A stretch of DNA of 64,000 nt from Candidatus Curtissbacteria bacterium RIFOXYA1_FULL_41_14 (GTDB taxonomy: Bacteria; Patescibacteriota; Microgenomatia; Curtissbacterales; GWA2-41-24): the NCBI GenBank assembly GCA_001775095.1, contig MFCA01000025.1:181232-245231 (forward strand). The letters are read 5' to 3'. Shown piece by piece: positions 20,025 through 35,603 of this stretch. The notes beneath the pieces were generated by a model, which saw nothing but the letters and a program-made list of their open reading frames with translations, was not told the origin of the DNA and made no database searches. Each line of letters starts with the position of its first letter. The first letter of the stretch is position 1. The position numbers and the translations under genes were made by a program.

Positions 20025-20456
20025 TTAGTTGGAGACTTTCTTGCCAGCCAAATCCTGTCCGCCATATGTCGCTGTAGTCTTGTTGACTTTAAACCCTAAC
20101 TCTCCAACTTTCTGATTGTCTGCTAAGATTTCAAATCTGTAGAGGCCGGCGTGCTGCAGGGGAAAATTAACCAATTCCGTTAGCAAATTAGCTTTGCCGT
20201 TTTGGCCAAGCCTCAGGTTTAATTCTTTAGCTGGAAATTCCGGCTGGCCTTTTTCGGGCGGGATGAGCTTTAACTTTAAGGAATACTCCTGGCCTGGTTC
20301 GCCTTTTAGGACCGCAACCAAAAACATCCGAGGCCAGGTGGTCGGCAGATTGGCTACAAAAAACTGGTCAAAAACGCCGATTATAGAAAGTTTTTGCTCT
20401 TGGGAAACGGACGCATGATCACAAAGTACAAATAGTTCTGTTGAAAGTTTTGCCAT
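20025..20456 (-). CDS. Hypothetical 143-aa protein embedded between dnaK and dnaJ
   Basis: An ORF of clean length with no overlapping alternatives, co-oriented within the hrcA-grpE-dnaK-X-dnaJ string. No recognisable motif (MAKLSTELFVLCDHASVSQEQKLSIIGVFDQFF...). Confidence 0.5.
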   Translation of the reverse strand: MAKLSTELFVLCDHASVSQEQKLSIIGVFDQFFVANLPTTWPRMFLVAVLKGEPGQEYSLKLKLIPPEKGQPEFPAKELNLRLGQNGKANLLTELVNFPLQHAGLYRFEILADNQKVGELGFKVNKTTATYGGQDLAGKKVSN

Positions 20457-22961: not shown

Positions 22962-23681
22962 TTAAACTCCTAAGCTTGATAATAGTTGCGAAAAGTACCT
23001 CATTGTTGGAATAATCACCTGATAATTAAGTCGGGATGGACCTACTACTGCCAAAACGCCCCGGTGACTGGGCATCTGATAACGGGAAATCACGAACCCA
23101 CAAGGCTCAAGATACGGCACGCCCAATTCCTCACCGAAAAGTATTTTTATCTGTTCTTCTGTTGAAAGTTGGCCAAAGATCGCAGAAAGCATCTCTGCTT
23201 TATCAAGCATCGAAAGCACGGTTTTGGTGATATCGATATCGTAAAACTCCGGCATGTCTAAAATATTGGCCATACCAGACGCGTATATATCGTTTTCTTC
23301 GTCAGTTGCCAGTGCCATAGAGTGAGTTTGATCTGCCAAAACCTTGGCGGTATGGCGAAGGAGTTTGTCGAATCTTTCTTTCTTTTCGCCAAGTTCTTCT
23401 TTAATAGCAACTTCATCTTTTAGAGAAAGAGACTTTTCTTCCATCAATTGATCAACATAAAATTTCATACCGACTGATGTAGGAATCCGACCAGCGGAGG
23501 TGTGCGGTTGTCGAAGATAACCAAGGCTGGTCAGTTTAACCATCTCGTTCCTGATGGTTGCCGGCGAAACCCCAAGTTTTGATTCTTTTTCAATAGTTTC
23601 AGAACCGATTGGTTCGGCGGTTTCGATATATTTTTCGATAACTGCACGAAGCAGATTTTTTTGTCGATCAGTAAGGTCCAT
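22962..23681 (-). CDS. hrcA: Heat-inducible transcription repressor HrcA (short form)
   Basis: N-terminal winged HTH MDLTDRQKNLLRAVIEKYIETAEPIGSETI...GVSPATIRNEM..LGYL, as in HrcA. A CIRCE-like operator lies in its promoter. Confidence 0.85.
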   Translation of the reverse strand: MDLTDRQKNLLRAVIEKYIETAEPIGSETIEKESKLGVSPATIRNEMVKLTSLGYLRQPHTSAGRIPTSVGMKFYVDQLMEEKSLSLKDEVAIKEELGEKKERFDKLLRHTAKVLADQTHSMALATDEENDIYASGMANILDMPEFYDIDITKTVLSMLDKAEMLSAIFGQLSTEEQIKILFGEELGVPYLEPCGFVISRYQMPSHRGVLAVVGPSRLNYQVIIPTMRYFSQLLSSLGV

Positions 23682-23815
23682 CGTAAAATTCCTTCAGAAT
23701 TTAGTTATGAGTTCTGAGGGATGAGTAGTGAGTTTGATGTAATTTCTCAATCCCCAAATCTCAGTACTCAATACTTTTTAATGGCGAGTGGGCAGTTAGG
23801 GCATCTCGCCGTTAT

Positions 23816-23892
23816 TGTCCAGATACTATACAGTATCTGGTTTAAACAGATATCGTATGGTATCTGTTTAAACGGGTACCGTACGGTGCCTG
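23816..23892. repeat. Three consecutive palindromes in the hrcA 5' leader, of which two are tandem copies of a ~30-bp palindromic unit
   Basis: CCAGATACTatacAGTATCTGG followed by GTTTAAACAGATAtcgtatggTATCTGTTTAAAC, then GGTACCGTACGGTGCC. Units 1 and 2 share CAGATAYYRTAYRGTATCTG plus GTTTAAAC. Confidence 0.55.
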
Positions 23893-23893
23893 T

Positions 23894-23921
23894 TTAGCAG
23901 ACAATGTACCACGAGTGCTAA
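23894..23921. promoter_or_regulatory. CIRCE-like HrcA operator (TTAGCAGAC-N10-GAGTGCTAA) overlapping the hrcA promoter
   Basis: Plus strand reads ttagcagac aatgtaccac gagtgctaa. One half-site matches the CIRCE consensus exactly; the other has 7 of 9 matches, and the spacer is 10 nt rather than 9. Confidence 0.6.
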
Positions 23922-23931
23922 TCGTTGTCAA
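23903..23931 (-). promoter_or_regulatory. Candidate hrcA operon promoter (TTGACA-N17-TACATT on the minus strand) with CIRCE in the spacer and -10 region
   Basis: Minus strand reads TTGACAacgattagcactcgtggTACATT. This is the classic arrangement in which CIRCE overlaps the -10 region and the transcription start. Confidence 0.5.
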
Positions 23932-23987
23932 GCCCCCGGCAAATTAGCAATCCAGACATAATTCTGGTATATTTATAGGCCTTAATT

Positions 23988-24623
23988 ATGACAGAAAGAC
24001 GCCTGAAAGAAACAATTGCAACTTATAACGCTGTTGCTTCCGACTACGAACAGCGAACTAATCATCTTGCCCCCACAGAAGAACTGCCAAGATTTACCAG
24101 ATTACTTGCGGCTGGCGCTAAGGTTTTAGATGCAGGTTGTGGTTATGGTCGGGAGCTTCGCCATTTTGTAGATCAAGGATTTATCACATATGGAATTGAT
24201 CTCTCCGAAGGCATGCTTGCAAGAGCAAGACAAAGAACTCCAGAGGCAAGTATCTTAAAGATGGATGTTAGAAAATTAGGTTTTCAGGAAGATTTCCTTG
24301 ATGGTGTTTGGTGCCGGGGAGTATTGCATCATTTGGAAAGAAATCAAATACAAAAAACATTAATTGGGATAAAACGCATACTTAAATCTGATGGGATTTT
24401 GTTAGTCATTTGTCAAAGTGGGACTGGCGAAGCAAAAGTAGAGGAAGAATTAACCTGTGGAAAGCCAAGATTTTTTACTTATTTTTCTGGAAGTGAGCTT
24501 GCGACACTGGTAGCGGACTCGGGTTTTGCTTTAGTAGAAGGGTATACCTACAATGAAAAAGAGCGTTACGGCACAGGTCGAGCAAATTTGAATTTCATAG
24601 TTGTCTTAGCTAGAAAGCCTTAA
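23988..24623 (+). CDS. Class I SAM-dependent methyltransferase
   Basis: Motif I VLDAGCGYGRELRHF, with post-I acidic residues and a Rossmann-fold layout. Confidence 0.75.
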   Translation: MTERRLKETIATYNAVASDYEQRTNHLAPTEELPRFTRLLAAGAKVLDAGCGYGRELRHFVDQGFITYGIDLSEGMLARARQRTPEASILKMDVRKLGFQEDFLDGVWCRGVLHHLERNQIQKTLIGIKRILKSDGILLVICQSGTGEAKVEEELTCGKPRFFTYFSGSELATLVADSGFALVEGYTYNEKERYGTGRANLNFIVVLARKP

Positions 24624-31975: not shown

Positions 31976-32255
31976 ATTTGGAGATTACCTTAATAAAGTT
32001 GTCTTTTTGGGTTGCGCCGATAATCCGATCTACTTCTTTATCTCCTTTTAGGAAAATGTAAGTCGGAATAGACATAACATTGTATTTGGCAGCCATTTCT
32101 TGATTTTCGTCAACATTGATTTTTTCAAAATCAACCTTGCCTTTGAACTCTTTTTCAACCTCATCCACAATCGGCTCCATGAATTTACAAGGGCCACACC
32201 ACTCGGCCCAGAAATCTATAATCTTTAGCATACTTTTGATATTATATATCAACAA
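31968..32255 (-). CDS. trxA: Thioredoxin
   Basis: 95 aa with FWAEWCGPCK (the CGPC active site). Confidence 0.9.
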   Translation of the reverse strand: MLIYNIKSMLKIIDFWAEWCGPCKFMEPIVDEVEKEFKGKVDFEKINVDENQEMAAKYNVMSIPTYIFLKGDKEVDRIIGATQKDNFIKVISKYE

Positions 32256-32391
32256 ACTCGAAATTCGAATATCGAAATTCTAAACAATATTTAAATTCAA
32301 ATGATCTAATGACCAAATTTTGAAGCACTCGTATTTCTGAAATTAGAATTTGTTTCGGATTTCGGATTTATGATTTCGAATTTATTGTAAG
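32256..32391. repeat. AT-rich quasi-palindromic element in the divergent trxA/pcrA promoter region (same family)
   Basis: tcgaaattcgaatatcgaaattctaaacaatatttaaattcaaat ... attagaatttgtttcggatttcggatttatgatttcgaattt. Confidence 0.5.
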
Positions 32392-35229: not shown

Positions 35230-35603
35230 TGTCTTTGTCTATCTTCTGCAATAAATGCTGATAGATTACCTCTTTTTCCTTTAAGAGAGCGTGATTTTTC
35301 TATCATACGCCACAAATTACGCCAATAAATTGCGTTTAAATGGGAAAGTGATTTGGCTTTAACAGTTTTGCCCCCTCTGTATTCCTTCATACTTTGATTA
35401 GTTGATCTTAGTGCATCTTCGATTTCAAATTCTTCTAATTTCTTATTCATTTTTTCAAGGGTTCGGACATCAACGATGGCAATATCAGGCTTGTTGTTCT
35501 TTAAGACTACAATAGGTTGTTTGGTTTTTTTGACTTCTTCAAAGACATGTTTGTAGTTTCGTTGGATCTCGCGTATGGTGGTAGTTTTAGGGAAAGTAAA
35601 CAT
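35226..35603 (-). CDS. Phd/YefM-like antitoxin with a C-terminal extension
   Basis: The N-terminal TTTIREIQRNYKHVFEEVKKTKQPIVVLKNNKPDIAIVDVRTLEKM is Phd/YefM-like. Its stop overlaps the PIN gene start. Confidence 0.6.
   Translation of the reverse strand: MFTFPKTTTIREIQRNYKHVFEEVKKTKQPIVVLKNNKPDIAIVDVRTLEKMNKKLEEFEIEDALRSTNQSMKEYRGGKTVKAKSLSHLNAIYWRNLWRMIEKSRSLKGKRGNLSAFIAEDRQRH

Follow-up and report, generated by a model that had tools for sequence, protein, structure and literature searches.

A Promoter-Embedded CIRCE-Like Operator and a Species-Specific Array of Palindromic Units Upstream of hrcA in a Candidatus Curtissbacteria Bacterium

The hrcA Locus and Its Promoter

We describe here the region upstream of hrcA, the gene for the heat-shock repressor HrcA, in Candidatus Curtissbacteria bacterium RIFOXYA1_FULL_41_14, as contained in 64,000 nucleotides of contig MFCA01000025.1 (assembly GCA_001775095.1, positions 181,232 to 245,231), a stretch that we call the window and whose own numbering is used throughout. 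The hrcA gene (22962–23681, minus strand; 239 amino acids) is the first gene of a hrcA-grpE-dnaK-DUF6941-dnaJ operon, as recognized from the list of open reading frames (ORFs) and from Pfam matches, including those to GrpE and DnaJ, and an intergenic region (23682–23987) separates it from a divergent gene for an S-adenosylmethionine (SAM)-methyltransferase (23988–24623, plus strand). This region holds a promoter with a CIRCE-like (controlling inverted repeat of chaperone expression) operator, followed at once by an array of palindromic units and by further elements of the predicted hrcA leader, all of which lie on the minus strand unless stated otherwise.

The promoter consists of a -35 hexamer, TTGACA (23926–23931), which is invariant in related hrcA promoters, a 17-nt spacer ending in TGG, and a -10 hexamer, TACATT (23908–23903), extended by the TG at 23911–23910 (the entire extended -10, TGG-TACATT, at 23903–23911), and, with a score of 10/12 plus the extended -10 TG, it is the top-scoring promoter-like site between 23300 and 24400. 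The extended -10 lies inside the spacer of the CIRCE-like HrcA operator, TTAGCACTC-N10-GTCTGCTAA (23894–23921), which spans -26 to +2 of the predicted transcription start. When compared with the inverted repeat TTAGCACTC/GAGTGCTAA, the left half-site matches at 9/9 positions and the right half-site (GTCTGCTAA) at 7/9. The N10 pattern, with up to three mismatches allowed, has one match in the 64-kb window versus 0.01 expected by chance, and the canonical N9 pattern has no match in the window. An earlier reading of this DNA, made from the letters alone (the sequence-only reading), had described TTGACA-N17-TACATT along with a CIRCE-like element possessing one perfect half-site, in a layout of HrcA autoregulation. 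The former description is borne out, and the latter is supported by the conservation of the composite promoter/operator 5' of hrcA and by the intact DNA-binding domain of HrcA, both considered below. Overall, the presence of an hrcA promoter with an embedded CIRCE-like operator is strongly supported by comparison with related sequences, and HrcA would be predicted to bind at 23894–23921.

Conservation of the Promoter and Operator in Related Genomes

Related hrcA loci, labeled here by L-numbers (L001, L004, L008, and so on), provide the main evidence for the operator. Of 80 related Microgenomates genomes, 77 possess one copy of the composite per locus, just 5' of hrcA, in the form TTGACA-N4-TTAGCAsTC-(r)TGnTAnnnT-nn(n)-sTGCTAA, across Curtiss-, Levy-, Gottesman-, Shapiro-, and Woykebacteria, and in further relatives, and in these conserved hrcA promoters the -10 is always within the CIRCE spacer. 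Position frequencies show almost no variation in the left half-site, in TGCTAA, or in the TG and TA...T belonging to the extended -10, while the three bases preceding TGCTAA are free, a right half-site of nnsTGCTAA being the norm for the clade. Most relatives possess 27-mers (N9), in which class the TG is kept in 81–88% and the TA...T in 98–100%, while a subclade of Curtissbacteria that includes the window possesses 28-mers (N10). As both spacer lengths are represented among close relatives, as well as among lon promoters, the difference of one base in the CIRCE spacer seems to be tolerated.

The composite is not restricted to hrcA. When metagenomes were scanned for the composite promoter/operator, 80 loci could be read, 59 of them 5' of hrcA and 21 not. 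Several of the latter are cut by contig ends or precede unassigned ORFs, and the rest are found 5' of heat-shock genes, those encoding Lon substrate-binding, Clp_N/AAA (clpB-like), HSP20, and Cpn10 domains. One example is presented by a Lon homolog of Curtissbacteria GW2011_GWD1_40_8, in which TTGACA-TCAA-TTAGCACTC-GTGATATTCT-AACTGCTAA, of the N10 design, is positioned 88 nt 5' of the ATG, in a sequence of 40.1% G+C, like that of the window. The contigs with groES are a different case: the CIRCE spacer in these is different and has no -10, the promoter-embedded version was not seen before groES, and these contigs are probably from another lineage. The sequence-only reading had suggested a search for other CIRCE copies, for example upstream of groES. 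Such copies exist in relatives and metagenomes, 5' of lon, clpB, hsp20, and groES, but the window has no other, nor does it encode groESL. In the searchable literature, nothing relevant was found on HrcA or CIRCE in Patescibacteria, the bacteria of the candidate phyla radiation (CPR).

The HrcA Protein

The protein encoded in the window scores 214.3 bits with TIGR00331 (an equivalog model with a cut-off of 197.2), matches PF01628 (E = 7e-22) and PF03444 (28.6 bits versus 21), and aligns through residues 3–93 to the winged-helix domain of HrcA from T. maritima (1STZ, residues 15–105; E = 5.6e-20). The aligned region includes QPHTSAGRIPT, the region being invariant across 28 relatives. Judged by these alignments, this is a true HrcA with an intact winged helix-turn-helix DNA-binding domain. 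The sequence-only reading had named two findings that would undermine the CIRCE interpretation, the lack of any other CIRCE-like site and a degenerate DNA-binding domain in HrcA. With other CIRCE sites present in relatives, and with the winged helix aligning to 1STZ, both points are answered in favor of CIRCE.

The full-length, three-domain architecture of ~340 residues is not found in this protein, as TIGR00331 matches in two stretches, and PF01628 is covered at profile positions 93–215 only. Such a short HrcA, of ~239 amino acids, is common to all the Microgenomates relatives, and the identical protein is present, under Curtissbacteria names, on many groundwater contigs. Among its HrcA relatives, by which the window is assigned to Candidatus Curtissbacteria (Microgenomates), the best one at species level is 89% identical. 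An AlphaFold (AF2) model of the short HrcA, with a pLDDT of 55.6, is too poor to locate the absent segment, which is possibly the dimerization insert of 1STZ, and no information on HrcA domain boundaries is contained in PMC8533110.

Transcription Start and Leader Length

The start codons of hrcA were anchored by homology to the MDLTDRQ...LL N-terminus, for 108 non-redundant promoters. In 33 of the 108 (L092, L118, L150, L179, L183, and 28 further loci), the distance between the end of CIRCE and the ATG is -1 to +8 nt, and in five of these 33 the ATG begins with the final A of TGCTAA. As the ATG abuts or overlaps the end of CIRCE, the hrcA mRNAs in question would be leaderless or nearly so, and this places +1 at 7–8 nt after the -10. 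For the window, this points to a start at about 23895, an A located 8 nt after the -10, also in agreement with sigma-70 geometry, and no other promoter-like site was found on the minus strand between 23895 and the hrcA ATG. With such a start, the leader would be 214 nt long, with the ATG at 23681 (AUG from +215), and the length of ~215 nt proposed by the sequence-only reading would be right; measured from the end of CIRCE, at 212 nt, it is the longest of the 108. A second gene in the window also looks leaderless, starting at 35603 (minus strand), 9 nt after the -10 of TTGACA-N17-TGATAGTAT (35641–35613).

A Tandem Array of Palindromic Units

Directly after CIRCE, three palindromic units of 26–27 bp follow in tandem, head to tail (23895–23819). 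Tandem Repeats Finder (TRF) defines this array as 23820–23896, with a period of 26, 2.9 copies, 76% matches, and a consensus of CAGATACCGTACGGTATCTG plus TTTAAA, of which the 20-mer CAGATACCGTACGGTATCTG is a perfect 20-bp palindrome. The respective 20-mers in the array are at 23820–39, 23847–66, and 23873–92, GTTTAAAC is found at 23840–47 and 23866–73, and the sequence form of the array unit is CAGATAYYRTAYRGTATCTG. The sequence-only reading had recognized two units of ~30 bp and a third palindrome; the palindromes are real, but according to TRF they are three tandem copies of a single 26–27-bp unit.

Every one of these units is predicted to fold. Unit A (23870–23895; +1 to +26) forms the hairpin AAAC-AGGCACC-GUAC-GGUACCC-GUUU (-8.8 kcal/mol), in which the 5' AAAC pairs with the downstream GUUU, from nucleotide +1, the 5' end thus being buried if the start is as predicted. 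Unit B (23844–23869; +27 to +52) forms AAACAGAUACC-AUAC-GAUAUCUGUUU (-8.5 kcal/mol, z -6.5), and unit C (23819–23840; +56 to +77), a 9-bp perfect inverted repeat, forms CCAGAUACU-GUAU-AGUAUCUGG (-12.4 kcal/mol, z -4.7). Over the three units, 21 of the 24 stem cells pair on the mRNA strand, with two pairs changed on both sides, and the folding of the array departs widely from random expectation (z -5.8 for the mRNA strand and z -9.2 for the plus strand). Folding of the whole leader, as the sequence-only reading had proposed, also gives a result far better than that for shuffles (z -6.6).

The sequence of the array is a property of one species. Six contigs from different samples, encoding identical or 99%-identical HrcA, carry an identical 309-nt intergenic region, including the array. 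The nearest other species lack it: in L001 and L087–L089 (90% and 87% identity by HrcA), TGCTAA is followed at once by CGGCGAG...CTCGCC, 8 nt, and the ATG. The window differs from the nearest species by two inserted segments, one being the array (82 nt) and the other a 3' module of ~100 nt, the latter otherwise present only in L004. No array units were found outside the window's species in more than 160 related promoters, or in about 200 related loci, and there are no further copies in the 64-kb window, so the search for the palindrome elsewhere, another suggestion of the sequence-only reading, came back empty. A reading of the units as dispersed elements, similar to repetitive extragenic palindromic (REP) sequences or to miniature inverted-repeat transposable elements (MITEs), was rejected, given the single locus and the lack of other copies in these 64 kb and ~200 loci.

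What does recur is the structure. One example is L008, in which a single 26-nt hairpin, TGCCGCACC-AGTTT-GGTGCGGCA-TAA, stands between TGCTAA and TAACGGCGAG, in the position and of the length of one window unit, and has GCACC...GGTRC in common with unit A. Other relatives (L002, L007, L009, L011, L014, L022, L024, L042, L057, L067, L068, L093, L122, L154, L155, and others) possess one hairpin each, of unrelated sequence, starting from +1 to +4 and often using the AAU left by the end of CIRCE. When leaders of at least 25 nt were inspected for hairpins starting at nucleotides 1–4, with a dG of -5 kcal/mol or lower, 22 of the 69 distinct leaders were positive, versus 4.0 expected from shuffles. 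Structure that recurs without its sequence typifies an RNA (or single-strand) element and not a protein-binding DNA site.

This bears on one of the two options raised by the sequence-only reading, that of binding sites for a second dimeric regulator, shared with the methyltransferase gene. The three 20-bp palindromes, at +3 to +76, would then be operators, acting as a roadblock for hrcA or controlling the methyltransferase. Eleven plus-strand positions that are invariant among the units (C1, G3, T5, A6, T10, A11, G14, T15, C18, T19, and G20), the regular spacing of 26–27 bp, and the position between two divergent genes are all compatible with such sites. However, the very spacing amounts to 2.5 helical turns and would place adjacent sites on opposite faces of the helix, no other copy is present in 64 kb, and Pfam/TIGR matches to the neighboring genes reveal no transcription-factor gene near the array. 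The methyltransferase, in turn, possesses a promoter-like site of its own and, when related loci are compared, is not a conserved neighbor of hrcA. The units are missing from every orthologous promoter, including those of the 90%-identical species, and their absence from the nearest species and from all of the 160+ related promoters makes a conserved second regulator unlikely, while the filling of the same slot by unrelated hairpins in relatives argues for structure over sequence. We consider operators of a second regulator improbable.

Leaders in the clade are, in general, mosaics of lineage-specific insertions. Two further modules, both apparently structured and neither present in the window, are ...AAATTTTATCnAGCTTnGCTnGnAAAATTT...TAAAGGGAAAGGAATATTAAGGGAAAACCG...CCCTTAAAG, in L007, L008, L010, and L025, and CCACAGTATAA..CTTACTTGCTC..GCAAG..GAGTATA..GGCAAGCC, in L062, L095, L107, L129, and L147. 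In addition, short palindromes of the form GACCCTTCGA-N-ACTCAGGGTC are found 5' of the hrcA promoter in L003, L007, L009, L010, L021, L022, and L027, often several per region, suggestive of a family of dispersed hairpin repeats in certain Curtissbacteria genomes; these were not seen in the hrcA region of the window.

Proposed Function and Origin of the Array

We lean, by a modest degree, toward a reading in which an HrcA-repressed promoter is followed by a triplicated 5'-terminal mRNA stem-loop acting as a stabilizer. With strong support from the comparison and from the established biology of HrcA and CIRCE, an HrcA dimer on CIRCE would occlude RNA polymerase at the spacer, the -10, and the start, resulting in autorepression, and inactivation of HrcA by heat or by unfolded protein would release the operon, including hrcA itself, with transcription starting at ~23895. 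The first 77 nt of the transcript would fold into three stem-loops that would bury the 5' end and might tune mRNA lifetime, as the recurrence of 5' hairpins and the analogy with E. coli and B. subtilis suggest, and by this analogy the array is probably a 5' stabilizer of the mRNA. Translation may be limited separately by a hairpin over the Shine-Dalgarno (SD) sequence (23686–23702), a possibility that two sequences hint at. As to the origin, the hrcA mRNAs would have been ancestrally leaderless or short-leadered, and the window's species would have gained a modular leader of 214 nt, the 26-nt module having been copied three times in tandem and having diverged since, most simply via slippage duplication of a single original hairpin.

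A number of observations weigh against this proposal. With respect to the operator, the CIRCE spacer is 10 nt versus the canonical 9, the right half-site has two mismatches, and HrcA, at 239 amino acids, is ~100 residues short of both the 338-residue TIGR00331 model and the 1STZ chain. The start site and the very existence of a long leader RNA are predictions from sequence. With respect to the array, it is confined to one species and may have no function, the covariation seen when the three units are compared falls short of significance (it is reached in 55 of 500 shuffles), and the 11 changes that separate successive units are transitions without exception, which does not fit. Further, each of the three mismatched stem positions is A.C on the mRNA strand and G.U on the plus strand, and the fold energy is -43.4 kcal/mol for the plus strand versus -28.5 kcal/mol for the mRNA strand, the opposite of what selection acting on the mRNA would give and a hint of selection on the plus strand.

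Some of these points would also be expected from a recent neutral event, in which a 5' hairpin was duplicated in tandem by replication slippage on the palindrome, the array having no function of its own, with the promoter and CIRCE, and perhaps the first hairpin, being what matters. Such an origin would agree with the presence of the array in one species only, with the insignificant covariation, with the mosaic nature of the clade's leaders, and with the nature of the differences among the units, all transitions and, from A to B, all GC-to-AT, as mutation bias predicts. However, 11 transitions versus no transversions go beyond a 2:1 bias ((2/3)^11, ~0.012), the array is identical in all the sampled populations, and each unit has kept 7–8 of its 8 stem pairs after 25–35% divergence, the two double changes included. 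We regard neutral duplication as unlikely.

The differences between the strands raise another alternative, that of a cis-antisense RNA, transcribed along the plus strand from within the 5' end of hrcA and pairing with the leader, for which the stable array hairpins would serve as a terminator or a stabilizer. On the plus strand all 24 of the 24 stem cells are standard pairs (three of them G.U), compared with 21 on the mRNA strand, the z scores differ in the same sense as the energies, and a promoter-like site, TTGTCG-N17-TAAAAT, is present on the plus strand at 23661–23689. This promoter match is a weak one, though (9/12, with no TG), half of it being dictated by the codons of hrcA, the hairpins are not followed by a U-tract, and mismatches that go one way in 3 cases out of 3 have a probability of 1/8 only. 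When the 5' hairpins of relatives were tested for the strand under selection, no clear bias was found, with 28 A.C versus 15 G.U, of which the window supplies five. A 58-aa ORF on the plus strand (23721–23897) is antisense to the whole of the hrcA leader and is annotated as a gene in two contigs of public databases (L082 and L086), but it has no Pfam match, is known in the window's species only, and is probably spurious. Overall, the probability of a functional antisense RNA here appears low.

Other Elements of the Leader

Besides the putative 5' stabilizer, the predicted leader contains three further hairpins. The first of these, GGCGAG...CUCGCC with the loop AUGCCCUAACUGCCCA (23783–23810; +86 to +113; z -4.0), is the only leader element whose sequence is conserved among Curtissbacteria relatives. 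Ten or more loci, representing seven distinct sequences, possess it; BLAST recognizes it in L001, L009, and L087–L089, and it is also present in L005, L007, L008, and L024. Its stem is invariant in six species, hence there is no covariation. In short-leader relatives this hairpin, GGCGAG-nUGCyCUArCUGCC-CUCGCC, precedes an SD-less ATG by 8–16 nt, and in four of the seven sequences its loop reads as a mini-ORF of start, one codon, and stop (ATG CCC TAA in the window). The second, a long and imperfect hairpin (23722–23770; +126 to +174; -14.4 kcal/mol, z -2.7), belongs to the 3' module of the leader, found otherwise only in L004.

The third is a small hairpin, AAAUUCU-GAA-GGAAUUU (23686–23702; +194 to +210), in which the GGA of the SD sequence GAAGGA (23690–23695; +201 to +206), 8 nt before the AUG of hrcA, is paired. 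At the same place in L004 (2975–2991), AAAAUCC-GCA-GGAUUUU is found, with compensatory changes, a comparison of two sequences only. The probability of the GGA being unpaired stays at or below 0.17 from 10 to 45°C, with no melting predicted. This hairpin is a candidate translational or thermosensing element.

The other option of the sequence-only reading, that the palindromic units themselves are RNA-thermometer hairpins controlling the translation of hrcA, finds some sympathy in the identity of hrcA as a heat-shock gene, in the highly structured leader (the z of -6.6 given above), and in the multi-hairpin leaders known for thermometers of the ROSE (repression of heat-shock gene expression) type. 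However, the units are located 120–210 nt 5' of the SD sequence, the last of them ending 124 nt from it, they do not pair with it in folds predicted for 10–45°C, they are absent in relatives, and the SD sequence is already covered by the other hairpin, at 23686–23702. Rfam provided no match at the gathering score in the window and, with E values up to 10 allowed over 23600–24050, only chance matches to microRNAs and small nucleolar RNAs. Thermometer function for the units is thus very improbable.

Neighboring Genes and Other Features of the Window

The methyltransferase promoter-like site mentioned above, TTAGCA-N18-(TG)TATATT (23944–23973, plus strand), scores 9/12 with the TG present, as a consensus match only, and is located 14 nt 5' of the ATG of this gene. 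Its -35 region (23944–23952, plus strand) reads TTAGCAATC, resembling the left half-site of CIRCE, and some relatives use exactly this sequence as a CIRCE half-site. The window copy lies at a distance of 22 bp from the operator proper and is not followed by a right half-site, and the resemblance is probably due to chance. Within the heat-shock operon itself, a gene for a DUF6941 protein (20025–20456, minus strand) is inserted between dnaK and the dnaJ-like gene.

On a larger scale, the cumulative GC skew of the plus strand has its minimum at ~22–26 kb, being negative from 11 to 23 kb and positive from 24 to 64 kb, and the genes to the left of the minimum are almost all on the minus strand, while the plus strand carries most of those beyond 32 kb, a pattern that resembles an origin-type inflection. 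Another divergent intergenic region, between tpiA and a gene for a UvrD-like helicase (31976–32391), contains one DnaA box with one mismatch, at 32161. A reading of the repeats as part of a replication origin was nevertheless rejected, as DnaA boxes are at chance level, with none between 23.6 and 24.1 kb, and as the genes of relatives are co-oriented across this point.

Relation to Known Systems and Implications

The arrangement described here has much in common with the HrcA-CIRCE system of the B. subtilis type: the hrcA-grpE-dnaK-dnaJ order, the operator preceding the repressor's own operon, a perfect left half-site, TTAGCACTC, in an inverted repeat with ...TGCTAA, and the conserved winged helix. 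It differs in the position of the operator, as in B. subtilis CIRCE is downstream of the start site, while in the window it is part of the promoter, from -26 to +2, with the -10 in its spacer, and also in the N10 spacer (N9 in its neighbors), in the right half-site relaxed to nnsTGCTAA, and in an HrcA of 239 versus ~340 residues. Compact CIRCE regulons are also characteristic of reduced genomes, such as those of Mycoplasma (dnaK, lon, clpB) and Chlamydia (dnaK, groE), and CIRCE before lon, clpB, hsp20, and the dnaK operon, in a small-genomed organism, conforms to this type, except that here the regulon is assembled from metagenomic contigs of relatives and not from one genome.

As to the array, 5'-terminal stem-loops that stabilize mRNA are known from the leaders of ompA in E. 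coli and of aprE and ermC in B. subtilis. The hairpins discussed here are similar in starting at +1 to +4, with no single-stranded 5' tail, and in the recurrence of structure but not of sequence; they are dissimilar in being present in three tandem copies versus one, and in that the stabilizing role is here a predicted one. With the ROSE and fourU thermometers, the leader shares its multi-hairpin nature in front of a heat-shock gene and a last, small, AU-rich hairpin in which UUCU and the GGAA of the SD sequence form the pairs, but it has no Rfam match, the units are away from the SD sequence, and the predicted occlusion of the latter persists without melting from 10 to 45°C. REP palindromes and bacterial interspersed mosaic elements (BIMEs) are likewise imperfect palindromes of 20–26 bp, in tandem and intergenic, but the array is found at a single locus, with all copies in one orientation, and at the 5' end of an operon, not at the 3' end.

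In conclusion, the HrcA/CIRCE system of this organism is a textbook one, with small variations: the operator fused with the promoter, the tolerance of N9 and N10, the short HrcA, and the frequently leaderless hrcA. The triplicated hairpin appears to be a species-level curiosity, to which a function may be ascribed, and nothing in these data overturns the current understanding. A broader proposal would be that of a minimal heat-shock regulon of Microgenomates, in which a short HrcA of ~239 residues acts on a promoter-fused CIRCE tolerating spacers of 9 or 10 nt, leaderless hrcA has repeatedly evolved long modular leaders, and the triplicated palindrome adds a functional post-transcriptional layer on top of HrcA, as a 5' decay barrier or as the folded end of a cis-antisense RNA. 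Taken as a whole, this proposal is speculative, and we consider it doubtful.

On present evidence, the classical HrcA/CIRCE switch would operate in uncultivated CPR bacteria in a compact, promoter-embedded form, and the operator consensus can be used for predicting the stress regulon (hrcA-grpE-dnaK, lon, clpB, and hsp20), while the leaderless hrcA of many relatives provides a computational fix on the start site. The leader in the window may represent a case of a leaderless gene having gained a long structured leader through insertion and duplication of hairpins.

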